Below are positions 9,601 through 64,000 of a DNA stretch of 64,000 nt, piece by piece. The stretch comes from a bacterium (GTDB lineage: Bacteria > Patescibacteriota > Microgenomatia > Daviesbacterales > UBA10151). Position 1 is the stretch's first letter. The number at the start of each line of letters is the position of its first letter. The DNA is taken from positions 270,997 to 334,996 of the forward strand of contig JAJYNN010000002.1 of the NCBI GenBank assembly GCA_021786315.1, given 5' to 3'. The notes under the pieces were generated by a model. That model searched no databases. It saw nothing but the letters and a program-made list of their open reading frames with translations, and was not told the origin of the DNA. The position numbers and the translations under genes are program-made.

Positions 9601-9621
9601 AGCTTTTTGTAAAAAATAATT

Positions 9622-10131: not shown

Positions 10132-10166
10132 TCTTCATCTGAATAAACTGTAAAGGTTAATAAGAT

Positions 10167-12038: not shown

Positions 12039-12047
12039 ACTAAAAAT

Positions 12048-34064: not shown

Positions 34065-34961
34065 ATGGCTAAACGTAAATCCTCCCACCGGTTTCAGATT
34101 TCCCCCGCTCACCTTAATATTATTCTCCTGGCAATTTTATTAACCCTTTTCGGCATTTATAGGACTTATGTTTTAGAGAATGAACCAAATTCCGGAAGGG
34201 AGGTTAGGGAGATGGGGCAACTGCCGTCAGAAATTAAAAAAGAACTTCAGGTTGCTTCCCCTTCTGCCACGTTCAGAGTCCCTGTTTTGCTTTACCACTA
34301 CGTTGAGTATGTCCAGGACAAAAAAGATACCACCCGGCAGTCGCTAAACATTAATCCTTATATCTTCGAGACTCAAGTTAAAACTTTGAAAGATGCCGGT
34401 TTCACTTTTATGACAGCTTCGGATATTGCCGATGTTTTGGATGGGAAAAAAGCTTTACCCCAAAAACCTGTGGCTCTGACTTTTGATGATGGGTACAGGG
34501 ACTTATATACTGATGTTTTGCCGATCCTTAAAAAATACGGTGCCCACGCGACTGCCTTTATTGTCCCGGGGTTTATTGATGGCCCAAACTCGATGTATGC
34601 CTGGCAACTCAAAGATGTTGCGGGAAGCGGGTTAGTGGAAATTGGGGCTCACACCATGCACCACAGCTACCTTAAAGGTATGGCGCTAAGTCGTGTCCAA
34701 TTCGAAGTTGACCAAAGTAAAGAAGCTTTGCAAAAAGAATTAGGAATTCCGGTTTCTTCTTTTGCTTATCCTTACGGGGCTTTTGATAAACAAACTGAAG
34801 ATGTTGTTAAAAATGCCGGTTTTAGAATTGCTATCTCTACAGTTCCCGGTGTAGAAGTAAACCAGGCAGACCGCTTTTTTGTTTACCGGATCCGTCCCGG
34901 TGCAAGAACAGGGGAAGAGCTTATTAAATTCTTAGAACAAAAAACATTTCACCCCTACTAA
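34065..34961 (+). CDS. polysaccharide deacetylase (NodB homology domain)
   Basis: ALTFDDGY...HTMHH NodB motifs, and an N-terminal TM anchor. Confidence 0.82.
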   Translation: MAKRKSSHRFQISPAHLNIILLAILLTLFGIYRTYVLENEPNSGREVREMGQLPSEIKKELQVASPSATFRVPVLLYHYVEYVQDKKDTTRQSLNINPYIFETQVKTLKDAGFTFMTASDIADVLDGKKALPQKPVALTFDDGYRDLYTDVLPILKKYGAHATAFIVPGFIDGPNSMYAWQLKDVAGSGLVEIGAHTMHHSYLKGMALSRVQFEVDQSKEALQKELGIPVSSFAYPYGAFDKQTEDVVKNAGFRIAISTVPGVEVNQADRFFVYRIRPGARTGEELIKFLEQKTFHPY

Positions 34962-35908
34962 AACATTTGTCGGTCTTTCAAATCCTGTTTGATTATTTCA
35001 ATAAATTTAGCGCTTCCGGTTTCATTTAAATGATCTGAATTGTCAGCAAAATCATCAGTATTAAACCTCTGGTCTTTTAAATAATTAAGATAAGGAATTT
35101 GTAGCTTTTCCGATATTTTGCCAACTGTTTTTTGCAAGTTCTCGTATTTTACCGGATCGACAGAAGAGTAATATGAGGCTGTTGCCGGGAAAGTGATTAA
35201 TACTACTTTTACTCCATGGCTCTGTAGCTTACTGATGGTATCTTCTAGGAGAGCGGTATTTTTAGGGATCAATGCCGGTCTCATGAAACTGGTATGTTTT
35301 TGGGCATTTTTTTGCCCGGCATTTTTCTCTTGTGACCTTTTTATCTTGGGGAAATCATACCATCCTACAGATGTGTTGTACTCAAGGAGATTATTTCTAA
35401 AACCGCTCATGGCCAGTGTGCGGATTGTTTCCGGATCATAAGAAGCGACCAAACTATAGTTTCGGGGATCTAAAGGATCGGGCTTTGCGGGAGGAATATC
35501 AAAGAATCGTTGGTAAAAAAATTTCCGCCAATATTCATTAGTGTTTTCTAAACTAAATTCTAAAGAAAAGTAGGAAATGCCGATAAAGGCTACTTTCAGA
35601 TTTGGCATCATATTGATGTATTTTGAAAGAATGGCGTGATCGTAATAGATATCCTGATTGGAGTTGGCTAAGTTACAGGAATTTTTAAAAAAGGCCGCGG
35701 GGTTAATATCATAATGGGCCTGGGAAGATCCAAGAATAATCATCTCTACTTTTGCCGGATCTTTTTCAATGCAGTTCCTTTTTAGAGTATAACTATTAGA
35801 AACAGAAGCAAGATTGTATTCCAAAATTAACACAAGAATTACCGGGACCGTTAAGAAAAGCAGTAACCTCTTTATAAAAAATATTGGAGAACCCGTTGTT
35901 CTATACAT
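34958..35908 (-). CDS. membrane-anchored SGNH/DltD-like putative acyl-esterase
   Basis: N-terminal TM. ILGSSQAHY (block I GDS-like) and SDHLNETG (block V DxxH). Confidence 0.45.
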   Translation of the reverse strand: MYRTTGSPIFFIKRLLLFLTVPVILVLILEYNLASVSNSYTLKRNCIEKDPAKVEMIILGSSQAHYDINPAAFFKNSCNLANSNQDIYYDHAILSKYINMMPNLKVAFIGISYFSLEFSLENTNEYWRKFFYQRFFDIPPAKPDPLDPRNYSLVASYDPETIRTLAMSGFRNNLLEYNTSVGWYDFPKIKRSQEKNAGQKNAQKHTSFMRPALIPKNTALLEDTISKLQSHGVKVVLITFPATASYYSSVDPVKYENLQKTVGKISEKLQIPYLNYLKDQRFNTDDFADNSDHLNETGSAKFIEIIKQDLKDRQMF

Positions 35909-36082
35909 TGCAATATATACAAAGAAATTATATAGTTATCTCATGCGTTTGGGAATGAAGATCTTAGCCTATCTTGTGGTGGCCCTGATTCTGATGGGCT
36001 TGGGGTATTATTTTATTTTCTCCTCAAAAAATTCCAATACCGGAACAGTTGGAGAACCTCCCATAAAAAGCATCTACGGATA

Positions 36083-37810
36083 TTGAAAATGAGGAGTTTC
36101 CCAAAACGTTTAGCTATTCAGGTTTTATTCGCAATTTTCCTGGTTCTAACTTTTTTCGAAATCTTGCTAAGAATATTTTGGAATCCTCCTTATTTGGAAG
36201 AAAAATATAAAAGAAATGATCTGGCCTGGCTTCAACAAAATGTAAAACTTAACCACTTTGGTTACCGTGACCGGGAGTTTGATTTAAAAAAGGATCCTGG
36301 GACTTTCCGGATATACACTGCTGGGAGCTCATATTCTTTTGGCTGGTACCTTAACGATTATAAATTGTCTTATCCTAAACAACTCGAATTATTACTTACT
36401 GACAAATTCAAAGACCACAAAATTGAAGTGGTAAACAGCGCTCGACCGGGGTTTAGTTTAGGGGAGCGGGTTAATAGATTAAAGACTGATGGTTTATTGT
36501 TTGACCCGGATATGTTTATATTAAGTATTAATCCATTCGATCTCTCGGTCAAAAGTTTTAAGCCGGGGATTACCAACTTGAAATTTATTCGGGATTTAAG
36601 GTTGTATCAATTTCTATATGCCAGGTTCGAAATTGCCCGGGTAGCCAAACTTCGCGATGCAGAGATTGTCGAAAATGCATCTGAGAACTCTAGCCAGTTG
36701 CAAAAAGTTGAAAAATTAATATTGGATGCTAAAAAGACGGCGGATGATAATGGGATAGATTTTGTGTTGTTGCTTTTTCCGGAACTGGATATAAATAATC
36801 CCAACGGTACCTATAAGTACACTAAGGTTAATGAGCAGTTTAAAACATTTGCCAAAGAAAATTCGATAAATTTTATTGATGCGTTTGAAGGATATAAAGG
36901 TTACCCTAAGAAGGGAGATCTAATTATAAATCCTACAGACCCTCACCCCAGTGCGCTTGCAAATAAGTTAACTGCTAACTATCTTTTAAATCAAATCGAT
37001 TTTGAAAAAATCATTAATTCATCCCGAACTTCCCCCGCTGTAGAAACTGCAACTGTTTCTTTAAATATGCCTTTAGATAGCTTTAATTTCATCTCATCAA
37101 TTGAGCCTTCAGGTTGGCTATATTTTAATAAGGAATTTGGGGGGACAATGAATTTCTTTTTACCGGATAGCCCGGACAGGGAAGTTTTGTATATGGAAGA
37201 TGTTTTAAAAACATCGGCCGGATTCACTAATGATGGTTGGCCGGGAGCAAAAATTGAACATCGAATTTTAGCTAAATCTAATCCTTTGGTGCTTCCGCAA
37301 AAATTGTATGGATATCGGGTGGTAGGAATTTCCGGGATAACCGGTTTTTGGGTGGAGGATGGTGCTTTACGGAGTAAAGATTTAGATCTTGTTTCTACAG
37401 AAATTACCAGAGACCAAAATAATATTTATCTGAAAGTAAATGACCCGCAAAAATTCCTGTTATATAAAATTACTGCAGATATCAGAATCAAACAATTTGA
37501 TATTGAAAAAGGAAAAATTACTGATTTATTTTCCACCCGATTAGAATCCGCAAGTGTTAACCAAGGCGGGCAAAAGGTATCTTTACAAGTTGAAGGTAAG
37601 ATCGGGTCTTTACCAAAGTTTACGTATTTAGGTAAGAAGGTTGGCTATGTCTGGCTGGATAATAAATTAGTTGGTGCTGATATTTCTGTGTCCGGTAATC
37701 AATTGGATATAGTTTTAAAAAACAAAGTTATAAAAGATTCGACTCTGGAAGTTCCCCTTGCCGAAGAGTTAGATAAGACTGTTGAAATGCCAACAATTTA
37801 TTATAAGTAG
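36083..37810 (+). CDS. membrane-anchored SGNH-hydrolase-like protein with a C-terminal beta-rich domain
   Basis: N-terminal TM. IYTAGSSYSFGW (GDS-like) and TDPHPS (DxH). Confidence 0.45.
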   Translation: MKMRSFPKRLAIQVLFAIFLVLTFFEILLRIFWNPPYLEEKYKRNDLAWLQQNVKLNHFGYRDREFDLKKDPGTFRIYTAGSSYSFGWYLNDYKLSYPKQLELLLTDKFKDHKIEVVNSARPGFSLGERVNRLKTDGLLFDPDMFILSINPFDLSVKSFKPGITNLKFIRDLRLYQFLYARFEIARVAKLRDAEIVENASENSSQLQKVEKLILDAKKTADDNGIDFVLLLFPELDINNPNGTYKYTKVNEQFKTFAKENSINFIDAFEGYKGYPKKGDLIINPTDPHPSALANKLTANYLLNQIDFEKIINSSRTSPAVETATVSLNMPLDSFNFISSIEPSGWLYFNKEFGGTMNFFLPDSPDREVLYMEDVLKTSAGFTNDGWPGAKIEHRILAKSNPLVLPQKLYGYRVVGISGITGFWVEDGALRSKDLDLVSTEITRDQNNIYLKVNDPQKFLLYKITADIRIKQFDIEKGKITDLFSTRLESASVNQGGQKVSLQVEGKIGSLPKFTYLGKKVGYVWLDNKLVGADISVSGNQLDIVLKNKVIKDSTLEVPLAEELDKTVEMPTIYYK

Positions 37811-37882
37811 GGATTACTGGATTCATACCCCAAACTCACGCAATTATTTCTGCTCAAATTTAAGATTTACCCATTAATTTCG

Positions 37883-38983
37883 ATGAAAGAGGTTTTGGTT
37901 GTTTTTCTTGTTTGGATTACGTCAATTAACCTTTTTGCCTTTACAGCCTTTCACCGCTTTAACCTAACGGGAGACACTGCCTATAACTGGACAAGCCGCT
38001 ATTTTTTACCGGCAAGGGATACGGATTTTTTTTCGCTGCATGAGAGGTGGGACTCTTATTGGTACTTGGATATTGCTGAACATGGATATTCGTTTCACAG
38101 TGGGGATAGTTTATCCAATGTAGCATTCTTTCCGCTTTATCCATTTTTAATAAGGATTTCCACTCCCATCTTTTTCGGCCAGGCAAATATAGCCGGTTGG
38201 TTTATAAGTGCCGTATCTTTACTTTTGGTGCTGATATATTTTTATAAACTAATCAAAAGATTTCATCCAAATATAAATCCTCATCTAGTTTTAGTTTTTC
38301 TGTTATTATTTCCGACTGCATTTTTTTTAAACGCGATTTATACAGAATCATTGTTTCTATTTTTGTCTATTGCTGCCTTTTACTACATGTTCAGTAAAAA
38401 CTTATTATTATCAGGAATCTTTGGCTTTTTGGCATCGGTGACGAGGCCTTCAGGTGTCTATCTCTTTATCCCACTTCTTTGGGAATATTACAGGCAAAAT
38501 TCCAGTATTAGAGCATTATTCAGAAAGGAATCTTTGTTTGTATTCTTAACTCCATTAGGTTTTGCTGTAACGCTGTTGATAGATTATTTACTTTTCCGCG
38601 ATCCGTTGTTATTTTTCAAAGTGGAAGGATGGTGGGGCAGGGGTTTTAACTTGAGGTCCGTATATATTAATCTTTTTAGTCAACCATCGGTTGTGAATTT
38701 TGCTTGTGACGTTTCGTTTTTCTTTTTTGCGGCTGCGGCCGCATATTTCCTTTTTAAAAATATCCGCACTTCTTATGGTCTTTATGTTTTGGTCACGATT
38801 TTGCCGGCAATTGCTTCGGGGACTTTGCTTAGTATCGGCAGGTATATTTTAGTGTTATTCCCGATATATATCTTGCTGGCTTCGATAAAAAACAAATATA
38901 TCCAGGCCTTAGTTCTTTTTAACTTTTCCCTCTATTTGGCCATGTTTACCACCCTTTTTGTAAACTACTATTGGACAGGATAG
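37883..38983 (+). CDS. polytopic membrane protein, putative GT-C-fold glycosyltransferase (PIG-V/DUF2029-like)
   Basis: 366 aa with about 9-10 TM helices. The Phe/Tyr/Leu-rich profile is typical of GT-C mannosyltransferases. Confidence 0.4.
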   Translation: MKEVLVVFLVWITSINLFAFTAFHRFNLTGDTAYNWTSRYFLPARDTDFFSLHERWDSYWYLDIAEHGYSFHSGDSLSNVAFFPLYPFLIRISTPIFFGQANIAGWFISAVSLLLVLIYFYKLIKRFHPNINPHLVLVFLLLFPTAFFLNAIYTESLFLFLSIAAFYYMFSKNLLLSGIFGFLASVTRPSGVYLFIPLLWEYYRQNSSIRALFRKESLFVFLTPLGFAVTLLIDYLLFRDPLLFFKVEGWWGRGFNLRSVYINLFSQPSVVNFACDVSFFFFAAAAAYFLFKNIRTSYGLYVLVTILPAIASGTLLSIGRYILVLFPIYILLASIKNKYIQALVLFNFSLYLAMFTTLFVNYYWTG

Positions 38984-39004
38984 ATTTGTGAGATAATAGC
39001 GCCA

Positions 39005-39301
39005 ATGGATTCCATTACTGATTTGTTTGATTTTGACTTTGAAGTTGAATATATGCTTTTTGTGGACGAGTTGGAAAACTCAGCCGGAATTTATGTTGTC
39101 CATACTGAAAAGGAAATATTAGATGCCGGGGAAACTGAGGACTTAAAAGAGGCAATAGAATCGCATCCTCATACCAAAAGCTGGATTGATAAAGCTCAAA
39201 AGGGGGATATCTATATTGCCTTCCATTCCGATCCAGATCCCGAAAGCCGCAAAGATAAGCTGCTTTATATCCAGTCTAAAATAATTCCTCAAGTAAGATA
39301 A
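39005..39301 (+). CDS. hypothetical acidic protein
   Basis: 98-aa ORF. Confidence 0.35.
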   Translation: MDSITDLFDFDFEVEYMLFVDELENSAGIYVVHTEKEILDAGETEDLKEAIESHPHTKSWIDKAQKGDIYIAFHSDPDPESRKDKLLYIQSKIIPQVR

Positions 39302-39371
39302 TCTTCTTTCTTCTTACTTACAAAAAGTTAATCCATTTTTAAGCTCTTCAAGATATCATTACTCTCGTAAA

Positions 39372-40211
39372 ATGCCTGCCACAAGGAGTAAAGAAAAAAA
39401 ATTCCAAAAAGAAGTTAAACTTGACCAAAAAGCTCAAAGAGCCTTGGCTTATCTTTCCGGAATTCCTCCGACAGAAGAAGAGACACTGACTCAAAATGTA
39501 ACTCTTTCGGAAGAAGAGAATGAGGAGTTTGAACACCTGCTTTCTATCTGGCTAACCCTACAGGAAACCGAGATTAAAGAGATAGGCAAAACTTTATTGG
39601 AGGTAATCCAAAGGTTAAAACTTTCTGCCAAAGGCATCCGCGGAAGGATCGAAAGCCAGGAGTATTTAAGGTTAGTGAGAAAAGCTTTTCGGAATTGGGC
39701 GGCAGCGGAGAGTGAAGAAAGAAGGATTCTGGTAAGAAATTTATTGGTTAATGCTGCCTCCAGATCTACGAGTCCGGATAATATTATATCGATGTTTATC
39801 GACTGGATAGACAACTATTCTGATGAACACTTCCGGGTAATCCGGGAAATTTCCCAAACCCAACCGGAGGGATTAACCAGAAGGGAGATGTGGGAACGGT
39901 TTTATCCCGGAAGGGAAATTCCGGCAGAGGATAGTGCCGAAGCGGATATGTTTAAGATGTTAATTTTGGATTTAACAACTGGGTATGTAATCCGGCAACC
40001 CCGGGAGAAAGATTTTTACGGATATTATGTCAGAGCCAGATCTACCACCAAGGCTGTTGCCGGAACGGAGGCTGTCCAAAGGACTACGGCCTTTGATAAT
40101 AGTAAAAAATACGTTTTAACGGAGCTTGGTAAACAATTTGTGCTTTATACTATGGAAGAGACTGAACCGGAAATGGAAAATACCTCCGAGGAAACCGCGA
40201 TAGACATATGA
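39372..40211 (+). CDS. hypothetical protein
   Basis: 279-aa ORF. No motif recognised. Confidence 0.4.
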   Translation: MPATRSKEKKFQKEVKLDQKAQRALAYLSGIPPTEEETLTQNVTLSEEENEEFEHLLSIWLTLQETEIKEIGKTLLEVIQRLKLSAKGIRGRIESQEYLRLVRKAFRNWAAAESEERRILVRNLLVNAASRSTSPDNIISMFIDWIDNYSDEHFRVIREISQTQPEGLTRREMWERFYPGREIPAEDSAEADMFKMLILDLTTGYVIRQPREKDFYGYYVRARSTTKAVAGTEAVQRTTAFDNSKKYVLTELGKQFVLYTMEETEPEMENTSEETAIDI

Positions 40212-40689: not shown

Positions 40690-43050
40690 CTACTTGTATT
40701 TATTCAGGAGACGAAAAGCGATTTCTTTTCTGTTTAAAGTCGGAGGCTTAATGTCTGTCACTGGTTTTTCTTCGTGTCTTTCTTCCTTCTTTTCTTCCCT
40801 TTTTTCCTCCTGTTTAGGTTTGACAGTGGGAGTGGGAACATCAACTACAAAATCGTCAGTGTTAAAAGGCTTTTCTTTACCCACTTTAGTATACCTTTCC
40901 TGGGAAACCTTAATAATCTTCTCCCGGTTTTGGTTTTTGCAGTCAGGTAAAGGCAGGCTTTGGGCCACAAATGGGGAGGAGGTTAGTCCGTCAATGGCCA
41001 TTTTGACAATCATCTGGTAAGTCCCCAAAGAAAGAAGATCAACGTCTTTAAATCTTTCCCCGAACTCCCGGGCTAAAATCGGCGCGTCTTCAGCACCAAT
41101 AATAAAGGACAGCATGGTTCCGGCGTTCCCAAAAATAGCGGACCGGACATGCTCCTCAATTTGGCCAATATATTGGTTAGCCAAAATTAAGTCTAAGCGG
41201 TATTTTCTCGCTTCGGACAAAATTTTGATAAAGCTGGAAGTGGCAAAATTTTGGAACTCATCAACATACATGTAAAAATCCCGGCGCTCCGGTTCGGGAA
41301 TATTGACCCGGTGCATGGCTGCCAGTTGAATTTTGGTGATGATCATGGCTCCCAACAGTGAGGAATTATCCTCTCCGATTTTTCCCTGGGAAAGGTTTAA
41401 GATGACAATCTTTCCCTGATCCATGGCTTCGGCCAGATTAACGGTAGATTTGGGGGAACCAACAATATTGCGGATGACCTGGGAAGAAAGGAACTGGCCT
41501 ACCTTGTTTAAGATTGGCGATATGGCCTCATTCATTTGCTGGGGGGACATCTTTTCAAATTCGTTGACCCAGAAGTTTTTTAGGACCGGATCGGCTAGTT
41601 TATCCACTACTTTTTGACGGAATCTTTTATTTGTCAAAAGCTCAGGAATCATGAGCATAGTAGAATTAGGCACTTCGAGCAGTGTTAAAATCGTATTTCT
41701 TAAAATGTATTCCAGCCTTGGCCCCCATGAGTGGGCATAGAGCTTAATAAAGATGGAAACGATACCGGAGGCCACGAGTTCCTTTTGGGTGGAACTGTCC
41801 ACTTCCAGCGGGTTTAAGTGGAATGGGTGGTCTAAATCGGCAGGGTTTAAGTAAGCGACATCGTTTATCCGGTGTGAAGGAATGTAATCCAAAAGGATTT
41901 CCGATAAATCCCCGTGGGGATCAATAACCGCAATGCCTTCGCCGTTTCGAATGTCGTTTATGGCCATATTGGCAATAAGGGTAGATTTACCGACACCGGT
42001 TTTACCGATGATGTACATGTGCTTGCGGCGGTCAACCTTTCTGATACCAAATGTCGCCGCGGTGTTTTTATACTCTGTTTTACCAAAGAAATTAATTTGC
42101 CCCTTATCCTCGGCGGCGATTCCTTGAGCCACCGGCAGGTTTTCAGGAGGATCAGAAAGAATTGTTTTAGACCAGGAAATATTGCGGATAGATTGCAGTT
42201 TTTCTCCCGGCAAATGGAAAAGGGTAGCCAGTTCCAAAAGATTTAAAATTTGGTTTTGGGGGATGGTCTCACCGGTTCGTCCCAGAATTGCCTTAAGCAT
42301 GGTTTTTTTCTCTAAAAATCCCGGTCCCGCTAAAGCAACACTATTTCCCTGAGGGTTATTGAATCCGGTAAAACAAGCGGCGGTAAGACCTAACAAAGAA
42401 GTATTAGGCCCGGCGGAAAGGATCCTGATCCCGGTTTTAAATCCGGGGTAGGAAATCTTTTCCTGGATAATTTTGGCGTAGGCATTTAAATTAAATGGAT
42501 CCTCGACAGGGGTTCCGTCAGCATTTTTAGAGCCTTTCCGCTCCAAGGCTTGTCGGCCTTTGCTTTGCCATTTATTGCTTTGGGGGATCAGCAAAAATTG
42601 TACCAATACTGTATCTTCCGGCCCAAGCTTGGACATCATCCCCAAAAGGGAAGACATCGGATCAACGTCTTTGAAATCCTTATAAGTCTTTAGGGGGTAA
42701 ACGTTAGGGGATTGAAGCTTGAGTTGCCCGTAAGAATAGGACAGCGGATCTTGAAAGGGAGCCATCATTTGTTCTAATTTAACGGGGGTGACCAAGGCCC
42801 GGGGGTATTGGGAGAGCAATTGGCTCTCGATAAATGATTGGTAGGAGGTGGGGATAACTACATAAAAGTGGATGGTTTGGTTAAAAGCTACAATTTCAAA
42901 ACTTAAAGGAAGCTCGGGAGCGCTTTTCCAAAAAGACCCGGATTTGGGGGCTTTAAGCTGAACAAGACTCCCAAAGAATTGGGCCATGGCCTCTGGGGTT
43001 TCTGTTCCCGTGCGAGGTGTTCTGATCTCGAGGGCAATTTTATTATCCAT
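40690..43050 (-). CDS. TraD/TraG/VirD4-family P-loop ATPase (type IV secretion coupling-protein-like), no N-terminal TM anchor
   Basis: 786 aa. Walker A IIGKTGVGKST and Walker B FYMYVDEFQNF. C-terminal ANQYIGQI...SAIFGNAGTMLSF is typical of the TrwB/TraD all-alpha and ATP-binding regions. Charged C-terminal tail. Confidence 0.65.
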   Translation of the reverse strand: MDNKIALEIRTPRTGTETPEAMAQFFGSLVQLKAPKSGSFWKSAPELPLSFEIVAFNQTIHFYVVIPTSYQSFIESQLLSQYPRALVTPVKLEQMMAPFQDPLSYSYGQLKLQSPNVYPLKTYKDFKDVDPMSSLLGMMSKLGPEDTVLVQFLLIPQSNKWQSKGRQALERKGSKNADGTPVEDPFNLNAYAKIIQEKISYPGFKTGIRILSAGPNTSLLGLTAACFTGFNNPQGNSVALAGPGFLEKKTMLKAILGRTGETIPQNQILNLLELATLFHLPGEKLQSIRNISWSKTILSDPPENLPVAQGIAAEDKGQINFFGKTEYKNTAATFGIRKVDRRKHMYIIGKTGVGKSTLIANMAINDIRNGEGIAVIDPHGDLSEILLDYIPSHRINDVAYLNPADLDHPFHLNPLEVDSSTQKELVASGIVSIFIKLYAHSWGPRLEYILRNTILTLLEVPNSTMLMIPELLTNKRFRQKVVDKLADPVLKNFWVNEFEKMSPQQMNEAISPILNKVGQFLSSQVIRNIVGSPKSTVNLAEAMDQGKIVILNLSQGKIGEDNSSLLGAMIITKIQLAAMHRVNIPEPERRDFYMYVDEFQNFATSSFIKILSEARKYRLDLILANQYIGQIEEHVRSAIFGNAGTMLSFIIGAEDAPILAREFGERFKDVDLLSLGTYQMIVKMAIDGLTSSPFVAQSLPLPDCKNQNREKIIKVSQERYTKVGKEKPFNTDDFVVDVPTPTVKPKQEEKREEKKEERHEEKPVTDIKPPTLNRKEIAFRLLNKYK

Positions 43051-43734: not shown

Positions 43735-44340
43735 ATGGCAAAAACGATTTTCGGTATTTTTAATAACCGGGATGATGCTGAAGAAGCTATCAATAGGTTA
43801 AAGGATCAAGATTACAACCCCAAGGATATGTCCATTGTTATAAGAGATACGGGGGAAGCCCGCGCCATGAGCGAAGACATGGGGGCAAATATCGGCGGGG
43901 GAGCTGTTTCCGGAGCTGCAACCGGAGGGGTTATCGGCGCAATCGCCGGCCTTTTAATCGGAGTGGGAGCAATTGCCGTTCCGGGAATCGGCGCGCTTTT
44001 AATAGGCGGGCCTTTGGCGGTCGCTTTGGGATTGACGGGCGCAGCTGCCACAACGGTTTCCGGCGCCTTGACCGGAGTTCTGGCCGGAGGTTTGGTGGGC
44101 GCATTGGTTAGTTTAGGAATTCCGGAAAATGAGGCCCGGGTTTATGAAGAGAGGGTCAAAAGTGGTGCAATTTTATTGGCCGTTCCGGCTCGGGATGGGG
44201 AAGAAGAGGAGGTTAGAAATATCATGGAAGATACAGGAGCAACTAACGTGAGCACGGTTTCGATGAGCCACGACCATTACGAACATCATCGGGATGAGGA
44301 AGAAAGAAAAAGAGATGATGATGAGGATGATATGGAGTAA
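43735..44340 (+). CDS. YflT/GSP17M-like general stress protein with a Gly-zipper membrane segment and an acidic tail
   Basis: N-terminal MAKTIFGIFNNRDDAEEAINRLKDQDY (YflT-like). GxxxG-rich TM region. C-terminus DDDEDDME. Confidence 0.55.
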   Translation: MAKTIFGIFNNRDDAEEAINRLKDQDYNPKDMSIVIRDTGEARAMSEDMGANIGGGAVSGAATGGVIGAIAGLLIGVGAIAVPGIGALLIGGPLAVALGLTGAAATTVSGALTGVLAGGLVGALVSLGIPENEARVYEERVKSGAILLAVPARDGEEEEVRNIMEDTGATNVSTVSMSHDHYEHHRDEEERKRDDDEDDME

Positions 44341-55634: not shown

Positions 55635-56054
55635 ATGAAAAAGGATAACCTGGGGAAGAGGTATCTGGTGATTTTGGCGGACAGGGAAAAGGTCAGGTTT
55701 TTTACAATCTACCTGGGCCATTTTGAGGGTGAAGTGGAAGAAATTGATATAGAGGATGTACCCCAAAAGGTAAAGTCAGAAGGATACAGGCCGGGAAAGG
55801 TCCAACGCCATATTGCCGATCATTTAAAGCATCATTTGAAAAACGTCGGGAAGGAAGCCTGGCAATATGTAGTCAAAAAAAGGATTAAGCAGCTGGATGG
55901 GGTTTTCTTAGGAACCCATAAATCACTATTTGGGGATTTAAAAAATAACCTGCCCGCTAAATTAAAACACAAAGTTTTGGGAGAATTTGTTATGGAACCA
56001 AATAATGCCGTGGGGGATATCGCCAACACAATTATTTCCAAATTTAACCTCTAA
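55635..56054 (+). CDS. host-attachment-protein-like / baeRF-family (bacterial eRF1-like) protein
   Basis: N-terminal RYLVILADREKVRFF resembles the WVLVADGSRARIF signature of the Host_attach family. Confidence 0.4.
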   Translation: MKKDNLGKRYLVILADREKVRFFTIYLGHFEGEVEEIDIEDVPQKVKSEGYRPGKVQRHIADHLKHHLKNVGKEAWQYVVKKRIKQLDGVFLGTHKSLFGDLKNNLPAKLKHKVLGEFVMEPNNAVGDIANTIISKFNL

Positions 56055-57420: not shown

Positions 57421-58677
57421 TCATTTACCAAGGGTGAATTTGTCTTCAATCATCTGCCAGAGGTTGGGGTATTGTTTGTCGTAACCTAAAGTCCAAATGG
57501 CAACCCCAGCTAAATCCAAGTTCTTTGCGTAATCATATTTAATACCGATGGATTTATCATCTTCCAGCCAAACCTGGTGGTTAACATCTGTTTCTGGGTC
57601 AGTGTACCAGCACCATGTAGCTTCTGCATCAGGGTCCCATTGGCATTGGTCAGGTTTCAACTGGTCAAAGCTTTGGGCCCGGCCGTAAGAAATAATTGCC
57701 GGGTAGCCATTAGCGTCGTTTCCTTCCAGGGTTTTGCTTTGTAGAGTTTTACCATTTTCCACTGGGTAGTCCCAGCCGTAATAAGGGACACCTAAAACCA
57801 ATTTTTCCTTGGGGACAAATTTTAAGTAATCATCCAAAGAGGTGGTGACGTCAAAAATATACTTCTTGTCGGAAAAACCTTTCATGGGGGCGACTGGTCC
57901 GGCGATATCCGAGGTGCTGGAATAAAAGTCATAGGACATAATAATGACCCGGTCAAAAAGTGGTGCCAGTTTGGCGATATCAAAAAGGCGGGGCTTGCGG
58001 ACGGAAAGGGGATACATATCAATACTCATCTCAGTTTTTGGCGACTCCCTCTTAAATTTGGCGGTTAGGTTTTGGTTAAATTCCACAAATTTTTGCCTTA
58101 GACTTTCCTCCGGCTCTCCGTCGTATTCAAAATCAATATTGATTCCGTCCAGGTGTTTATTGGAAACTTCTGCCAGAAGGTTGTCAATAAGAGTTGTTTG
58201 GGCGCTGGGGTTGTTTAAAAAAGTCTCCAGGTCTTTATTTTTTTGCATAGCCACTGTCACGGAAACTTTGCCGCCGCGGATTTGGGTTTGGGTAATCAGG
58301 TCTTTGACTGTCGGGCTGTTCCACCATCTCCAGCCGGGGTCGGTCTCGTTCTTGACGATTTTGATAAAATTTCCATCGGCGCCTGCCGTCAAGCTAAAAT
58401 AAATGACCTCGGAAACCAAATCGTACCGCAGGTATTTGGTGTCATCCATCCGCCAGTAAGGTAAAAAACCGATCACCTCCTTGGTCATTTGGGCATGAGG
58501 GTGGTTAAAGCTGGTAATAAGATAAGTGGAGGAATCAAACGGGGAGGCAACAGGGTATTTATAGTGCAGATAAGCCAGTAAACTTACAACTACAAGTACG
58601 AGGGGCAGGAAAATAAAAAGCAGAGGTTTTTTAAACCTGGCCAATAAGGTTTTTTTGGGAGAAATTTCTTCGTCCAT
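57421..58677 (-). CDS. membrane-anchored glycoside hydrolase family 18 (chitinase-like) protein
   Basis: N-terminal TM. Catalytic motif LDGINIDFEY (DxxDxDxE). Confidence 0.75.
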   Translation of the reverse strand: MDEEISPKKTLLARFKKPLLFIFLPLVLVVVSLLAYLHYKYPVASPFDSSTYLITSFNHPHAQMTKEVIGFLPYWRMDDTKYLRYDLVSEVIYFSLTAGADGNFIKIVKNETDPGWRWWNSPTVKDLITQTQIRGGKVSVTVAMQKNKDLETFLNNPSAQTTLIDNLLAEVSNKHLDGINIDFEYDGEPEESLRQKFVEFNQNLTAKFKRESPKTEMSIDMYPLSVRKPRLFDIAKLAPLFDRVIIMSYDFYSSTSDIAGPVAPMKGFSDKKYIFDVTTSLDDYLKFVPKEKLVLGVPYYGWDYPVENGKTLQSKTLEGNDANGYPAIISYGRAQSFDQLKPDQCQWDPDAEATWCWYTDPETDVNHQVWLEDDKSIGIKYDYAKNLDLAGVAIWTLGYDKQYPNLWQMIEDKFTLGK

Positions 58678-58748
58678 TCTCTAATGATACACCATTTAAC
58701 ACGCTGATCTTGCCTGGCTCGTGCCTGGTGTGACATAATTGATAGCAG

Positions 58749-59741
58749 ATGTCAGACGGTATTTCCGCAGTTTTATATCTCCACCCTAAGTCTTGGCAGT
58801 TTTTACGGGCGGATAAAATTGATATCTTTCCGGCAAAAGTATCCAATTTAGGGCGTTTATTAAAAAAAGAAAATATTAAAGATAAAAAGATAGCAATCCT
58901 TTTGGATGATTCCTTAATCCATAAAAAAGAGATCTCTTTAGAAGACCCGGAAAAAGCCCAAAATGATTATGAGGATTTTTTAAAAGGGCTCCTGATTGAT
59001 GAAGGCAACTTAGCCAGTGTCAAAGTTTATGAAGGTAATACTTTAAGTGCTTTGGTGGTTGATAAGTCTTTCTATCAAGGGGTTCAGTCCTTAATTAAAG
59101 AGAAGGGCGCGAAAGTTGAGGCTGTTTTACCCGGGTCGTTTTTAGAAATTAAGGAACTCAGTAAGGGAAGCTTAGAGCTGATTATTCAGAATAAGGCTTC
59201 TTTTCATAAGTTTAACTTTATTAAGGAAACAAAAAGCCATCTTTTAACCCCCCCAAAAAATATTTCGGGAAAGAAGACCAAGCCTGACAGGAAAAATTCC
59301 TTGTTTTGGGCGGTTTTAGGATTAATCCTGCTTGTTGGGGGAGGCATGTATGTGAATAAAGACAAGCTTTTTAATTTAAAACAAAATATCCCCCTAAAAA
59401 AACAAGTTGCGCAAGTCCCATCCCAAAATGAATCCAGCCCTTCAGCTGGTACTCAGTTGTCGCTCCGGGAAGGAGTTAAAATCCAGATATTAAACGCTTC
59501 CGGAATAAAGGGATTGGCGGGTAAGGTTCAGGATAAGCTGGAGGCGGTGGGGTATACCAATATCGTGGTGGATAGCTTAAGCCAAGTTCAAAGGGGCAAC
59601 TCGGTTGTTGTTTTTGGCCCGAATATCCAGGCAGATTTAGCTTCAGAAATTAAAGATGCGGTAAAAAAGATTGATAAAAATGTGGAAGAAGTGGCAACCA
59701 AAAGCGCGGAATTTGATGCGGTGGTGACGATCAAAAGATAG
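58749..59741 (+). CDS. membrane protein with a C-terminal LytR_C domain
   Basis: TM LFWAVLGLILLVGGGMYV. C-terminus IQILNASGIKGLAGKVQDKLEAVGY...VVVFG (LytR_C). Confidence 0.6.
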   Translation: MSDGISAVLYLHPKSWQFLRADKIDIFPAKVSNLGRLLKKENIKDKKIAILLDDSLIHKKEISLEDPEKAQNDYEDFLKGLLIDEGNLASVKVYEGNTLSALVVDKSFYQGVQSLIKEKGAKVEAVLPGSFLEIKELSKGSLELIIQNKASFHKFNFIKETKSHLLTPPKNISGKKTKPDRKNSLFWAVLGLILLVGGGMYVNKDKLFNLKQNIPLKKQVAQVPSQNESSPSAGTQLSLREGVKIQILNASGIKGLAGKVQDKLEAVGYTNIVVDSLSQVQRGNSVVVFGPNIQADLASEIKDAVKKIDKNVEEVATKSAEFDAVVTIKR

Positions 59742-59948
59742 GGCTACTGAAAATAGATTTTTGGTTAGGGTATACAGGAGAAAAGCTTCAAAGGGATAAA
59801 ATTAATATTTTCAAGCTTTAAAGCCTGAGATATCAAAGACAAACCTTCTTCGCCTACTTCCTTAAAATTTTCGTTTTGGATCCCGGTTTAACAGGGAAGC
59901 TTGCCCGGTTGCCCGGTTGGGCTTCCCTGCTTGTGGGATGTGGAGGGG

Positions 59949-60371
59949 CTAGGATTGGATGTCTGATCGAGTTATTTCTCTCGACATGCGGGCGACCAAG
60001 ATGGCTTGGCAAATCAGAAGAAATGCCGGCGCAATAATGATCGCTTGACCGATAATGGTTTGACCGAGAGTTACATAAATCAGCCCCACATCAACGCTTG
60101 AAATCACGATGATTGGGATCATCATCAGGGCCGCCGATTTGGGGCGGATGATGAAAGTGCTAAGGACGAGCAGGGCGGCAACCCCGATCATTGTCCTCTG
60201 TGAGAACAATGCGGTCGATGTTCCGTCGATTACTGAGTAACCGATGTACGCCATGATTAAAATGGAGACCACTGTACTAAGCCAGGTTTTTGATCCCTGG
60301 ACTGCGGCCGCGGTGTTAGCCATTGATTGGTTTGATTGCCGACGGTTGCTGATAGCCTGGTCGCTCAACAT
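59949..60371 (-). CDS. cassette gene A: small 4-TM membrane protein
   Basis: 140 aa. SD aggagga and ATG. Preceded by the conserved leader and consensus promoter. Moderately elevated GC. Confidence 0.55.
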   Translation of the reverse strand: MLSDQAISNRRQSNQSMANTAAAVQGSKTWLSTVVSILIMAYIGYSVIDGTSTALFSQRTMIGVAALLVLSTFIIRPKSAALMMIPIIVISSVDVGLIYVTLGQTIIGQAIIIAPAFLLICQAILVARMSREITRSDIQS

Positions 60372-60573
60372 TTAGTTTCCTCCTAAGCCATTTATACGTC
60401 ACGGGCGTTAAAAAATTTCACCCGTAACGGATCCAAAGTTATATATTTTTAAGGTCCGCTCAGCTTCAAGAAGCGAGTGGCCTGTATACCCTGTTAAAGT
60501 TCTCTGTCCCGTCGTGTTTGCCAAAAGCAAAAAATCTACCGCATAACGATAGATCCACAGGAAAGATAGGGTA

Positions 60574-60602
60574 ATTATAATACTATGGGTCTTAAAAATC
60601 AA
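60574..60602 (-). promoter_or_regulatory. consensus sigma70 promoter of cassette A (TTGATT-17-TATAAT on the minus strand)
   Basis: Minus strand reads ttgatttttaagacccatagtattataat. Duplicated at 61761-61789. Confidence 0.6.
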
Positions 60603-60813
60603 GTTTTGGGGGTACAAATTGGGTCAGGGTATACAGACGGGGACTTTGCAAAGGATGCAGTTAATATTTTTCAAGCAAAAGCTTGAGATATCAAAAGCAA
60701 ATTTTGCTTTTTCCTTTGTCTTGGACTATTCCTTGGGATCCCCTCTGGTAGGGAAGCTTGGTCCTGGATTAAATCCAGGATTACGCTTCCCAACCTGGAA
60801 GGGATATTGTGGA

Positions 60814-61596
60814 TCAGCGATCTATCCGATACGCTTCGAAGACCCCAGATTGAGGCGGAAAGAAGTGCTTTTCGCCGGATTTGAAGGTCAGGCCGGTGGC
60901 TTTGTCCCGAAGTGCCCAACCGGGCTTCACGGTGGCGAAGAGTTGGGCTCCCTGAGGGAACTGGATCGAGTGGGTCTCGGGCTTGAACGAGTAGGAAACG
61001 ATGTTTCCGTCGTAGGAAAGCTCTGCCTGCTCGACCGTGCCATTGAACATGGAAGCGACCGATGTGATAGGGTCTTGAGTGCTCCACCAAGAACTGACCA
61101 ACATCCCAAGGGCGATGATAGCGACTACGAGTGCAGCCGTTGCTGCGGCAGCTAGCCACGGTTGGTTTGCTACTTGGTTGGTGGTCCGGGCCTGAGGCCT
61201 GTTGCTCATCTGCCGTGCTATGGCTTGGGTTTGCACCCGAAGCATTTGCGATTCAGCCATGATTAGACCAGTCTCTGCCCTTCTCCTGTCTGCTTCGGCC
61301 TCGATCAACCGGGTTTCAGCCTTTACCTGTGCGGCTTGGGCATCGACCAGCCTGATATTGGCGCTCCGCAGCCTGGTGAGCATACGGGTGCAGTAGATTT
61401 GGGCTCTCCTGAGGGAATCCTCTTCTTCCTGCGGGGAAACGATAGTCTGCTCCCGGGAGGCGCCGGGTTCGGTTGTTGCCGCTACCGGAATCTCCTGGGT
61501 GGCGTTGGGGTCGGTGTTGGTTTCCGTGCCGTCCGTTGCCGGTTCGGTTTCGGATTCCTCCAAGACTCCAGTGCCGTTGTCTCCTGCCATTGTCAC
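60814..61596 (-). CDS. cassette gene B: bitopic membrane protein with an acidic/coiled-coil N-terminus and an extracytoplasmic C-terminal domain
   Basis: 260 aa. SD ggagga and ATG. TM WLAAAATAALVVAIIALGMLV. GC about 58%. Same leader and promoter as cassette A. Confidence 0.55.
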   Translation of the reverse strand: MTMAGDNGTGVLEESETEPATDGTETNTDPNATQEIPVAATTEPGASREQTIVSPQEEEDSLRRAQIYCTRMLTRLRSANIRLVDAQAAQVKAETRLIEAEADRRRAETGLIMAESQMLRVQTQAIARQMSNRPQARTTNQVANQPWLAAAATAALVVAIIALGMLVSSWWSTQDPITSVASMFNGTVEQAELSYDGNIVSYSFKPETHSIQFPQGAQLFATVKPGWALRDKATGLTFKSGEKHFFPPQSGVFEAYRIDR

Positions 61597-61760
61597 TCAT
61601 CCTCCGTAATTAATCCATCTGAACGATACGGGCGTTAAAAATTTCACCCGTAACGGTTCCAAAGTAAATATATATCCAAGACTTACCTACCTTTTAAGGG
61701 GTAGAGTAGTCTGTATACCCTGTTAAAGTGCGTTCTTCCTTAAAGGGAAAAACTTTGCGT

Positions 61761-61789
61761 ATTATAATACTATGGGATCCTAAAGTCAA
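61761..61789 (-). promoter_or_regulatory. consensus sigma70 promoter of cassette B (TTGACT-17-TATAAT on the minus strand)
   Basis: Minus strand reads ttgactttaggatcccatagtattataat. Confidence 0.6.
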
Positions 61790-61866
61790 AAAATTTAGAC
61801 CTATAATTAAGAATCTACAAGAACTACAGGCTTGTTTAGGTGTGAATAAGAGAAAGCCCTATAGGA

Positions 61867-61895
61867 TTGAATTGCACTTGACAGCTTGGTATAAT
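61867..61895 (+). promoter_or_regulatory. sigma70 promoter TTGAAT-17-TATAAT driving the 62.1-63.0 kb small-gene operon
   Basis: ttgaattgcacttgacagcttggtataat, followed by a ~190-nt leader carrying gagcc/ggctc hairpins. Confidence 0.55.
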
Positions 61896-62094
61896 AGATA
61901 GTAACAAAGCGGGTAACCCCAGACATAGGCTGTTTGGTGTGTTGTCCTATTTGCAATTATTTTAACTTTGCACTTTGACAGTTTGTTGGAAAGTATCTAG
62001 GAGCCTGGGCTCTTTTTGGTTATAAACATATCTTGTAGCCGGAAAGAGCCTAAGGCTCATATTTTTTTGGCTAAGAGCCAGAAAGGACGACAGG

Positions 62095-62424
62095 TTGAAA
62101 CTGGGGATGTTGACGGGAAGAGTGAAAGCGTTTAGCAGACAGATGGGACGAGGCCATGCGGTTACCCCAGGGGGGAAGAGAATCATCTTCTATGATGATG
62201 GTCGCAAGGTCTACACCAAAGCAAACGCTGGTCTGAACAACGGTAACGGGATCGAGGTCCATGGTCGTGGCAGATTTGTTGACGATCGTGACCCGCGCAA
62301 GGGCGACACGCTCCTCTTTGAGAGGGTGAAAAGAACCCGCAGTGGTTACAAAGGGCGTTCCTGGATTATCAAGGTAAGGACAGGAAACACCGTAACATGC
62401 TCAATTGCTGATGCAATAGCCTAA
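62095..62424 (+). CDS. hypothetical small basic protein (island gene 1)
   Basis: 109-aa ORF, high GC. The true start is possibly ATG 62107. Confidence 0.45.
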   Translation: MKLGMLTGRVKAFSRQMGRGHAVTPGGKRIIFYDDGRKVYTKANAGLNNGNGIEVHGRGRFVDDRDPRKGDTLLFERVKRTRSGYKGRSWIIKVRTGNTVTCSIADAIA

Positions 62425-62440
62425 ATAAGGAGGCATCAGG

Positions 62441-62674
62441 ATGCGGACAGTTGGTTGCACTCCTCTGGGTCACAAGGTGACGGTGGAATGGACCAAGCGA
62501 GATGGTCGTTGGGGAAATCATGTCTTTGTCTACAACAAGGGCAGGGTTCCTCAAAGAATCCGTCATGCTTCGAACGAAGCGCCAGGGATGGTTGCTCAAG
62601 AGCTGGTAAACGGCAAGAGGGCCTATCCCGAGATTGACGAAACTAATCAAGAAAGATTGGGAGGAAGAGGATGA
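62441..62674 (+). CDS. hypothetical small protein (island gene 2)
   Basis: 77 aa, with an SD aggaggcatcagg before the ATG. Confidence 0.45.
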   Translation: MRTVGCTPLGHKVTVEWTKRDGRWGNHVFVYNKGRVPQRIRHASNEAPGMVAQELVNGKRAYPEIDETNQERLGGRG

Positions 62675-62976
62675 ATGCAAGTCTGGTTTTAGCAGGTAAG
62701 GTTTCCCATTCCAACGGTGGCTCGAAAGTTCTCGCCGGTGCGACTCAATGTGCCGAGGACACGCTCAAGGTGCTTCATAAGATGTGTTGCGACCGGGGGC
62801 CGGTTTTTCCAGGACGAGTTCCTGATTGTCTCCCTGTCGCCAAGAAGTTAGGCATCAAGCAGGAGAATGTGATTATTGCAGGTCTTTATGAGCTGCATGA
62901 TCGCGGCTTAGTCCGGTATCTGGGAGGCGATCGGTTTGTCCCCTTTGGAGAGAAAATCCTTTCTTACGATATCTAA
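62671..62976 (+). CDS. hypothetical small protein (island gene 3), possible winged-helix C-terminus
   Basis: 101 aa. Overlaps the upstream stop (translational coupling). Confidence 0.45.
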   Translation: MNASLVLAGKVSHSNGGSKVLAGATQCAEDTLKVLHKMCCDRGPVFPGRVPDCLPVAKKLGIKQENVIIAGLYELHDRGLVRYLGGDRFVPFGEKILSYDI

Positions 62977-63076
62977 TACTTTCCCAACAACTGAATAGCG
63001 CAAAGACTCAGGCGCCGACCGGCAGGTGAGTTGGAATAGCCAACTCTTAACTTGCCCTAAGGCGCCTCTTTGCTAT

Positions 63077-63298
63077 CTAGACATCTATTTCAAAAATTTT
63101 GTGTTTGGATTTTGCTCCGGATATAAGCCTGACGTTTGATTTACCGGTTTTAAAATATTCCGCTAGGGAAGTAAGTGTGGCCTGGTTGGCCTTACCTTCT
63201 AAAGGAGGCTGGTTGACATAAACATGCAACTCCCCAAAAAGATCCTTCTCAATCCTTTCCTTTTTGGCATTTGGGTGCACAATCACCGAAACCTTCAC
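63077..63298 (-). CDS. DUF167/YggU-family protein
   Basis: 73 aa. MKVSVIVHPNAKKERIE...LHVYVNQPPLEGKAN. Confidence 0.7.
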   Translation of the reverse strand: MKVSVIVHPNAKKERIEKDLFGELHVYVNQPPLEGKANQATLTSLAEYFKTGKSNVRLISGAKSKHKIFEIDV

Positions 63299-63370
63299 AA
63301 CTTATTTTACCTCATAACGACCGCAAACAGACCTTTGACTTTGATATAGCCCAGGATATAATAGGTCAAA

Positions 63371-64000
63371 TGATCAGGTTGGAAACAGAATTAAACGATC
63401 GCTGGAATGGTCTTTGGCAAAGGCTGGGTGCGACTGGCAATCCTGATATTCCGTTTGGGGAGATAATGACTCGCTACAGTGAACCCGGACGCCATTACCA
63501 CACCTCGCTTCATATTAAAAACTGTTTAGATCAATTGGAATTAGTGAGAGAATTGGTTACTGATACTAATGCTTTGGAATTTGCAATCTGGACTCATGAT
63601 GTTATTTACGATCCTAAAGCACCTGATAATGAAGAAAAATCGGCTGAATTCGCCAGAGATATACTAGCCCGGGCACAGGTCGTTCCCGCAATGGCGGATA
63701 AAGTTGATCACTTAGTCCAGATTACAAAAACTCATATACCTGGTGACGGTATCGATGAGCAAGTGATGGCTGATATTGATATTTTAATCTTAGGCAGCCA
63801 CCCAATAGTTTATGAGGAATACATGGATGGAATCAGGAAAGAATATACCTCGGTGCCTTTCCACCTGTTCAGAAGGGGAAGACAGAAAGTATTGCAAAGT
63901 TTACTCGGAAGGCTAGAGGCTGGCGAACTATTTCATGTGCCTACATATAGATATAAGTACGAGGAAAGCTCCCGTTATAACCTGTTAGGTGAAGTGAAAG
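63371..64000 (+). CDS. HD-superfamily phosphohydrolase-like protein (COG4339-like), 3'-truncated by the window edge
   Basis: Hand-translated: MIRLETEL...RHYHTSLHIKNCLD...WTHDVIYDP. The ORF runs off the window end. Confidence 0.6.

Follow-up and report, generated by a model that had tools for sequence, protein, structure and literature searches.

Pairing between the two ends of a bacterial mRNA is, to our knowledge, known so far from a few single genes (hbs, icaR and hok). In Bacillus subtilis hbs, a 14-bp interaction of the 5' untranslated region (UTR) with the 3' UTR modulates cleavage by RNase Y (PMC5737220). The Staphylococcus aureus icaR mRNA forms a long-range 5'/3'-UTR helix that includes the Shine-Dalgarno (SD) sequence (PMC3868564), and the hok mRNA forms a tac/fbi 5'/3' stem in which the SD is involved and tac has a competing local partner, ucb (PMC9841398). 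A second type of precedent is the promoter-early stem-loop (PeSL) cassette of T4-type phages, in which a stem-loop and a strong sigma-70-like promoter flank orphan open reading frames (ORFs); PeSLs are present in many copies in the hyperplastic regions of these phages, and copy exchange has been documented by genome comparison (PMC2839356, PMC4122927). Here we describe a 3.3-kb island (positions 59745-63070) in a 64-kb window, the whole stretch of DNA analyzed (GenBank assembly GCA_021786315.1, contig JAJYNN010000002.1, positions 270,997 to 334,996), in which structured untranslated sequences surround orphan genes and a segment of the leader of each predicted transcription unit is complementary to a segment of its trailer.

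Untranslated frames, box and leader/trailer complementarity

The island lies between a LytR_C gene on the left (ending at 59741) and a DUF167 gene on the right (ending at 63077). It contains five genes, A to E, all with an SD at proper spacing, which form three units: gene A (unit 1) and gene B (unit 2), both on the minus strand, and genes C-D-E (unit 3) on the plus strand. The original prediction for this DNA had described two promoter-equipped minus-strand cassettes followed by a three-gene operon of small basic proteins, and this layout was confirmed. Three further features, observed at this one locus, go beyond that prediction: untranslated frames shared between units, a common box, and unit-specific complementarity between the 5' and 3' ends.

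Promoter-like sites, defined as consensus matches, were detected in front of all three units (10-11/12 matching positions), and transcription starts were inferred from their -10 elements. The site of unit 1 (P_A; 60602..60574, minus strand) reads TTGATT-17-TATAAT, and that of unit 2 (61789..61761, minus strand) reads TTGACT-17-TATAAT (11/12) and diverges from the unit 3 site (61867..61895, plus strand; TTGAAT-17-TGgTATAAT), which has an extended -10 TG. The density of such sites was 1 per kb in 59000-64000 and ~0.3 per kb at host genes in a 20-kb control stretch.

The 5' leaders of unit 1 (60372..60567, minus strand) and unit 2 (61591..61754, minus strand, with an SD) were 82% identical with one 45-nt indel, and their 3' trailers (59742..59948 and 60603..60813, respectively, both minus strand) were likewise 82% identical. 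This homology stopped at the start and stop codons, and the enclosed proteins A and B were unrelated (BLASTP E = 36). One frame type around two unrelated ORFs implies either that the ORF was replaced by recombination within the frames or that different ORFs were recruited into one frame. The common order of the leaders was ACTTTAACAGGGTATACAG, a variable hairpin P2, ACTTTGGAwCCGTTACGGGTGAAATTTTT(T)AACGCCCGT (hairpin P3) and GGAGGA, and that of the trailers was T1 (GGGAAGC...GCTTCCC), GGGATCC, T2 (TTGATATCTCArGCTTT..GCTTGAAAA.TATTAA) and CTGTATACCCT; no further occurrence of these motifs was found in the window. The unit 1 leader comprises the box ACTTTAACAG (60491-60500), the 5' arm AGGGTATACAGG (60482-60493), P2 (60452-60483), P3 (60397-60429) and the SD (60378-60383), and its trailer comprises T1 (59880-59939, with the GGGAAGC..GCTTCCC stem), T2 (~59790-59848) and the 3' arm CCTGTATACCCT (59766-59777). 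The corresponding parts of unit 2 are the box ACTTTAACAG (61720-61729), the 5' arm CAGGGTATACAGAC (61709-61722), P2 (61677-61713) and P3 (61624-61655) in the leader, and T1 (60738-60805; z -6.5), T2 (~60648-60707) and the 3' arm GTCTGTATACCCTG (60625-60638) in the trailer. The 45-nt insertion, present in the unit 1 leader and absent from unit 2, carries a terminator-like hairpin with a T-run (60522-60556, minus strand), ~10-45 nt past the inferred start, and might keep gene A largely off or attenuated.

The box ACTTTRACAG occurred exactly three times in the 64 kb (0.25 expected), a count that none of 100 shuffles reached. Each leader has one copy, in sense orientation, 115-130 nt upstream of the first start codon of its unit. 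In unit 3, the box (ACTTTGACAG, 61972-61981) stands in the 5' leader at 61902..62094 (plus strand). A 12-mer core, CAGGGTATACAG, occurred four times with at most one mismatch (59766+, 60482-, 60625+ and 61711-; 0.11 expected) and was confined to units 1 and 2, at whose two ends (5' and 3') it stands in inverted arrangement, with one copy in each leader and its complement in each trailer. The complementarity between leader and trailer extended over 12 bp in unit 1, 14 bp in unit 2 and ~17 bp in unit 3. The arms of unit 1 (AGGGTATACAGG and CCTGTATACCCT) have a unit-specific extension of G:C and then, past an internal loop, GCTTC/GAAGC, and those of unit 2 (CAGGGTATACAGAC and GTCTGTATACCCTG) have the unit-specific extension AC:GT. 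The arms of unit 3 (CAGTTTGTTGGAAAGTAT, 61979-61996, and ATACTTTCCCAACAACTG, 62976-62993) are unlike those of units 1 and 2 in sequence; the 5' arm occupies the same leader position right after the box, and the 3' arm stands immediately behind the last stop codon of the unit.

Twenty nucleotides starting inside the box were scored against the unit's own trailer. The results showed pairing energies of -21.0, -26.1 and -17.2 kcal/mol for units 1, 2 and 3, which were equalled by 18, 0 and 11 of 2000 random equal-length window segments, respectively. This 20-nt test replaced RNAduplex energies of whole leaders against whole trailers, which were rejected as uninformative (giant loop-rich duplexes). 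Because the units share a position-specific box and complementarity, not one arm sequence, we argue that base pairing is the selected property in preference to one protein-binding site.

The leaders of units 1 and 2 both folded into P1 (CAGGGUA:UACUUUG), P2 and P3. Comparison by eye of the two single-sequence folds showed that the P2 pairing was kept through G:C to A:U and C:G to U:A changes; an automatic two-sequence alignment fold failed to recover P2. The 5' arm overlaps P1/P2, and the local and long-range pairings are therefore mutually exclusive. The 3' arms were single-stranded in the local trailer folds. In addition, a G-U pair in T2 of unit 1 would be an A-C mismatch on the other strand, which favors structure in the sense transcript.

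The leader of unit 3 was also strongly structured, with a 214-nt fold of 61902-62115 at -78 kcal/mol (z -6.1). It includes a hairpin of ~25 bp followed by T7 (62000-62068; no Rfam match), which is a candidate attenuator or the candidate end of a ~170-nt small RNA (61902-62068). The unit 3 trailer (62976..63076, plus strand) starts with its 3' arm at the last base of the gene E stop codon and continues with a stem-loop (63000-63073; -42 kcal/mol, z -5.9) between the converging E and DUF167 genes. A known RNA family for the leaders and trailers was sought in Rfam over 58500-64000 and rejected, since at E <= 5 the results were chance matches only: the trailer hairpin of unit 1 matched a trypanosomatid snoRNA model, and NsiR4 matched inside the next gene.

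We propose, with a probability of roughly 40%, that this islet was acquired horizontally and comprises three self-contained expression cassettes (A; B; C-D-E), with a long-range helix between the 5' and 3' ends that closes each mRNA. Each cassette would consist of a near-consensus sigma-70-type promoter, a structured leader of 160-200 nt with the box ACUUURACAG, one or more SD-led ORFs and a structured 3' trailer. The leader segment that starts in the box would pair with its own trailer, and the resulting 12-17-bp helix would bracket the coding region and compete with the local leader hairpins P1/P2. Such a helix may control ribonuclease access and/or translation, as in hbs and hok tac/fbi.

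Composition, origin and rival explanations

The original prediction had noted a rise in GC between the LytR_C and DUF167 genes, and our measurements agreed. The GC of the island was 0.488 compared with a window mean of 0.430 (400-bp windows, standard deviation 0.041); the 3.3-kb segment with the highest GC of all 64 kb begins at 59901, and the top 800-bp segment (0.578) begins at 60801. The GC and tetranucleotide comparison that it had suggested as a check placed the window maximum on the island for GC and for tetranucleotide L1 distance, and the maximum for dinucleotide relative-abundance distance fell there too. Gene GC was 0.58 for B, 0.515 for C, 0.513 for D, 0.503 for E and 0.50 for A, versus 0.39 for the LytR_C gene and 0.41 for the DUF167 gene. 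The intergenic frames of the island had a GC of just 0.38-0.43, so the excess sits in the ORFs. GC at third codon positions (GC3) was 0.42 +/- 0.05 (maximum 0.52) in 55 host ORFs, and A (0.60), B (0.66) and C (0.55) each exceeded all 55 of them (z +3.6, +4.9 and +2.6, respectively). Two more of its observations held: coding switches to the minus strand (A and B) and then to tiny basic proteins on the plus strand (C, D and E; isoelectric points (pI) 11.0, 10.0 and 8.75), and overlapping multi-frame spurious ORFs are present under gene B. These compositional results suggest that the island is probably of foreign origin.

A host-type YflT/ActD-like gene (43735-44340) also holds a 400-bp GC peak of 0.57 (at 43800-44300), so that short GC spikes are not confined to the island.

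The island boundaries were sharp, at most ~20 nt from the flanking stop codons, with the left edge ~20 nt past the LytR_C stop. An independent contig from a Logan assembly (L001; SRR22746126, 4270 bp) was 100% identical to window positions 59281-63550, and because it reproduces both island junctions, these are real and no chimera of the present assembly. It was the only independent contig with the island that was retrieved, and it ends ~465 bp to the left and ~480 bp to the right of the island, which could mirror strain variation or a coverage change at the flanks in that sample. Candidate att-like repeats at the island ends were rejected, as an inverted pair (14/18) and the best end-proximal direct pair (15/18) did not exceed chance level, and each of them has one copy within the coding sequence of DUF167. 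No target-site duplication was found at the island, and no tRNA or tmRNA in the 64-kb window.

The inverted arms also permit readings in which the repeats act as DNA. It is distinctly unlikely, in our judgment, that recombination takes place at them (as in invertible segments or a shufflon), or that they are terminal inverted repeats, the cassettes being moved or flipped by a recombinase encoded elsewhere in the 0.94-Mb genome. The four asymmetric 12-bp cores do have a palindromic GTATAC center and alternating orientation (+,-,+,-), an inverted pair flanks every gene and P_A, and P_A itself has the 3' arm of unit 2 on one side and the 5' arm of unit 1 on the other, which form a perfect 12-nt inverted repeat with 131 nt between them, the classical inverton layout. 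Nevertheless, the original prediction that integrases and transposases are absent was borne out when the ~70 ORFs of the window were checked against Pfam, and no other site-specific recombinase was found among them; the arms of unit 3 differ in sequence, so one enzyme would not recognize all pairs; the conserved sequence reaches far past the repeats and is not the same on the leader side as on the trailer side; target-site duplications are absent; and both assemblies (the window and L001) show a single orientation. A dif/Xer-like site had been considered for the leader core copies CTGTATACCCTGTTAAAG, which resemble the dif central region and XerD arm, and was dropped as unsupported: in the trailer copies the TGTTAAA arm is missing, there is no sign of a second arm, and the cumulative GC skew climbs monotonically across the window, with no terminus. 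A repressor model, to which we give a small chance, holds that a small basic island protein (E, or C/D) binds the four cores as operators and, by roadblock and/or DNA looping around P_A, keeps units A and B repressed; the complementarity would then be a by-product of site orientation. The sites lie at ~+33 and ~+75 of the two leaders and at ~-60 of P_A, C-D-E, whose three products are basic, and unit B are divergent, an arrangement often seen for regulators, and the helix-helix-helix-strand-strand order modeled for E is compatible with a winged helix at low confidence. This model, however, leaves unexplained both the unit-specific arm extension and the analogous arm pair of unit 3, which is unrelated in sequence and stands in the same place after the box; moreover, there is no promoter that the core at gene A's 3' end could control, and C, D and E show no detectable DNA-binding domain.

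Two further explanations concern the source of the island. We consider it unlikely that the locus is native, fast-evolving and lineage-specific, with a higher GC that results from protein composition or local selection. The adjacent LytR_C gene (58749-59741, plus strand), whose GC of 0.39 is the lowest of the neighborhood, had no homologue at E <= 1e-5 among 5.8e9 protein clusters and retrieved only itself, and every flank gene is a singleton at 90% identity; therefore, orphan status by itself is no evidence of foreignness in this poorly sampled lineage, in which orphan genes are evidently common. The GC3 of D and E within the host range, the host-like GC of the untranslated frames, the host-type promoters, the lack of mobility genes, tRNA or direct repeats, and the GC peak at ~43.8 kb in a host gene all fit a native locus. 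What it does not accommodate is the GC3 of A, B and C above every host gene and the position of the island as window maximum for two signature measures that do not depend on amino-acid content alone. The original prediction had favored a prophage remnant or a moron-like island, and we find it very unlikely that the island is such a remnant or consists of morons left by a decayed prophage. The moron-like part fits insofar as the units are predicted to be autonomous combinations of promoter, ORF and hairpin with deviant GC, small orphan genes and membrane proteins are typical phage cargo, and repeated promoter/stem-loop frames around orphans recall the PeSLs of T4-type phages (PMC2839356, PMC4122927). 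The prophage itself was not found around the units: the window contains no phage structural, replication, lysis or integration gene among its ~70 ORFs, no tRNA and no att-like repeat, and the immediate neighbors on both sides are of the usual host kind (PurA, GH18, LytR_C, DUF167 and an HD-like gene). A to E had no match at a meaningful E-value in Pfam, PHROGs, PADLOC or NCBIfam, with no PHROG match below E = 0.01. The database search that had been suggested as a check gave no match in INPHARED, IMG/VR or PLSDB. Specifically, the island DNA had no blastn match in 50,697 phage records (INPHARED) or in plasmids (PLSDB), A and D had no relatives in INPHARED phages (tblastn) or IMG/VR, and IMG/VR held no copies of the frame motifs beyond chance matches. 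A plasmid origin was rejected on the same PLSDB result, and a defense system was rejected because no island gene had a PADLOC match.

Several points weigh against our preferred reading of acquired cassettes with end-paired mRNAs. The evidence for horizontal origin is compositional, the GC3 values of D (0.47) and E (0.50) fall inside the upper host range, and the LytR_C gene is no less an orphan than the genes of the island. It is likewise a prediction that the ORF transcript includes the 3' arms, because starts and 3' ends come from consensus scans and the stable trailer hairpins lack U-tracts. Support from covariation is thin, as there are 2-3 copies at one locus and no homologous copy was found elsewhere. 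As inverted repeats in DNA, the arms fit DNA-level roles equally, and the arm pair of unit 3 (15/18 ungapped) is unremarkable except for its position. Finally, the arms lie 110-130 nt upstream of the SD, and since the helix leaves the SD uncovered, any effect on translation would be indirect.

Gene products, searches for relatives and neighborhood

Gene A (59949..60371, minus strand; GGAGGA-6 nt-ATG) encodes a protein of 140 aa with a pI of 9.9 and ~4 hydrophobic segments, predicting four transmembrane (TM) segments. Gene B (60814..61590, minus strand) encodes 258 aa; its ATG at 61590 is better SD-spaced than the GTG at 61596, in agreement with the 258-aa call. Protein B has an acidic N-terminus, an Ala/Arg/Glu-rich stretch judged coiled-coil-like by reading the sequence without a coiled-coil predictor, one TM segment (143-171) and a beta-rich C-terminal domain. 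Gene C (62095..62424, plus strand) encodes a beta-rich protein of 109 aa from a TTG start (105 aa from the ATG at 62107) with a pI of 11. It is followed by gene D (62441..62674, plus strand; AAGGAGG-7 nt-ATG; 77 aa, pI 10) and gene E (62671..62976, plus strand; 101 aa, pI 8.75), which share an ATGA overlap. Single-sequence AlphaFold2 models were unfit for a fold search, with a predicted local distance difference test (pLDDT) score of 45 for E and 36 for C; at this low confidence, the E model had the order H-H-H-E-E and resembled a winged helix. The island products are thus two membrane proteins and three small basic proteins, the latter probably nucleic-acid-binding.

Searches for relatives of the proteins gave negative results. 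Among 5.8e9 protein clusters, B and E matched only themselves, and a phmmer search of the PDB gave nothing below E = 0.19. For C, apparent homologues at E = 5e-20 to 1e-14 (phmmer, 1.84e9 representatives) were rejected, being weak matches summed over the tandem repeats of giant proteins; in pairwise comparison, BLASTP against these proteins gave 26-31% identity over 29-84 aa, which marks the matches as artefacts. Searches for further copies of the frames gave a similar picture. In IMG/VR, a 17-mer of the frame had 22 single chance matches without a second motif, the 19-mer hairpin motif had 0 matches, and the trailer motif had 1 chance match. The combined core and hairpin pattern had 0 matches in JGI metagenomes, and a covariance model run over the window and the loci of 13 relatives recovered only the two known copies.

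The host genome is of the Candidate Phyla Radiation (CPR)/Microgenomates type and Curtissbacteria-like. The closest genomes found were metagenome-assembled genomes of Candidatus Curtissbacteria and Levybacteria, with 55-58% identity at the GH18 neighbor gene, and contigs bearing the island proteins reach 942,606 bp. In GTDB genomes, the GH18 search retrieved 3 loci at 55-58% identity with no conserved neighbor and no synteny, and the PurA search of JGI metagenomes retrieved 10 loci at only 41-45% identity, again with no synteny. To the right of the island, the DUF167 gene (63077-63298, minus strand) is followed by an ORF that runs off the window end (63370->, plus strand). Pfam matches elsewhere in the window include DprA, a ClpB-like protein, TopA, CTP synthase, S2, EF-Ts, RRF, ProRS, trigger factor, DnaX, RecR, CysRS, GDH, DsbA/B and a MacB/HlyD ABC exporter, in addition to PurA and GH18.

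Several other regions of the window were noted. A low-GC region at 34500-40200 (~0.36-0.38) is the second compositional outlier of the window (tetranucleotide distance 0.26-0.27); here, three ORFs without a Pfam match (34958-35908, minus; 36083-37810, plus; 39372-40211, plus) adjoin a polysaccharide deacetylase and a PIG-V-like mannosyltransferase, and the region may be a variable cell-envelope glycosylation region. The stretch 8695-12614 encodes a 623-aa protein that has a thymidylate-synthase-like domain, with three dCTP-deaminase-like paralogues (8695-9600, 9622-10131 and 12048-12614) around it; for a CPR genome, such a cluster for nucleotide metabolism or modification is unusual. A 786-aa TrwB/VirD4-like type IV secretion coupling protein with TrwB_AAD_bind, DUF87/HerA and TraG-D_C domains is encoded at 40690-43050 (minus strand), with no other recognizable conjugation genes nearby. 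A 139-aa baeRF family 10 protein (bacterial archaeo-eukaryotic release-factor-like) is encoded at 55635-56054 (plus strand), directly upstream of purA.

Comparison with described systems and significance

Like hbs, icaR and hok, each island unit has 12-17 bp of complementarity between leader and trailer beyond chance, and the 5' arm, like tac with ucb in hok, has a competing local partner (P1/P2). That units A and B encode membrane proteins is a further likeness. The pairing in the island is predicted, and the likeness is one of functional analogy and not of membership. In contrast to icaR and hok, the island helix excludes the SD; in contrast to all three cases, for which no such arrangement has been described, three neighboring units share one design and a common box. 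Proteins A (140 aa) and B (258 aa) also differ from the pattern of hok and type I toxin-antitoxin systems, which have a toxin under 60 aa and an antisense RNA. No antisense RNA is evident here, and the promoter scan of the island showed no conserved antisense promoter.

The likeness to PeSLs lies in the repeated units of stem-loop and sigma-70 promoter and in the unrelated ORFs A and B inside homologous frames (82% identical), which imply modular ORF swapping. Unlike PeSLs, the island is chromosomal without phage context, has 2-3 copies, found only in the island among the 64 kb and the 13 relatives' loci, and has far longer frames (leader ~200 nt plus trailer ~200 nt) with a complementary 5'/3' pair and hairpins without U-tracts. 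Phage morons and genomic islets have autonomous promoter-ORF-hairpin units of deviant GC between unrelated genes, as is predicted for the island, and resemble it in their orphan cargo, membrane proteins included, whereas the island units stand outside any prophage and lack an integrase, tRNA or direct repeat. With classical genomic islands it shares atypical composition and sharp borders, but the window has no integrase or transposase, tRNA/tmRNA target or flanking direct repeats. As in invertons and shufflons, alternating inverted copies of a short core flank genes and one promoter; the differences are the missing recombinase in the window, the third unit with another repeat and the single orientation in two assemblies. 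An integron array comprises an IntI integrase, an attI site and promoterless ORFs, each with an attC after it. The island differs in having no integrase, a promoter for each unit, and repeats 700-1100 bp apart that bracket the ORF instead of a compact attC following it.

It is conceivable, if quite doubtful, that the three units belong to a class of portable framed gene cassettes, so far undescribed, in CPR bacteria, each with a promoter-leader-trailer frame, the common box and a cassette-specific closing helix. In such a class, the frame would insulate and control any ORF that it carries and would provide homology for ORF swaps or cassette addition. The units would then be a counterpart of phage PeSLs or integron cassettes that sits in the chromosome and brings its own promoters, and the C-D-E proteins might service it. 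We know of no earlier description of framed cassettes in which a box anchors 5'/3' complementarity that is specific to each unit.

Genomes of CPR/Patescibacteria are very small and have few recognizable mobile elements, and how they acquire and control genes is largely obscure. If the locus is native and fast-evolving, it would be an ordinary lineage-specific orphan cluster. If our reading is true, imported orphan genes with their own promoters and a shared structured frame would be a concrete case of gene acquisition in CPR bacteria without integrase or tRNA hallmarks, and if the pairing is real in RNA, the three units would offer an unusually clear natural set in which to study how the ends of bacterial mRNAs pair.

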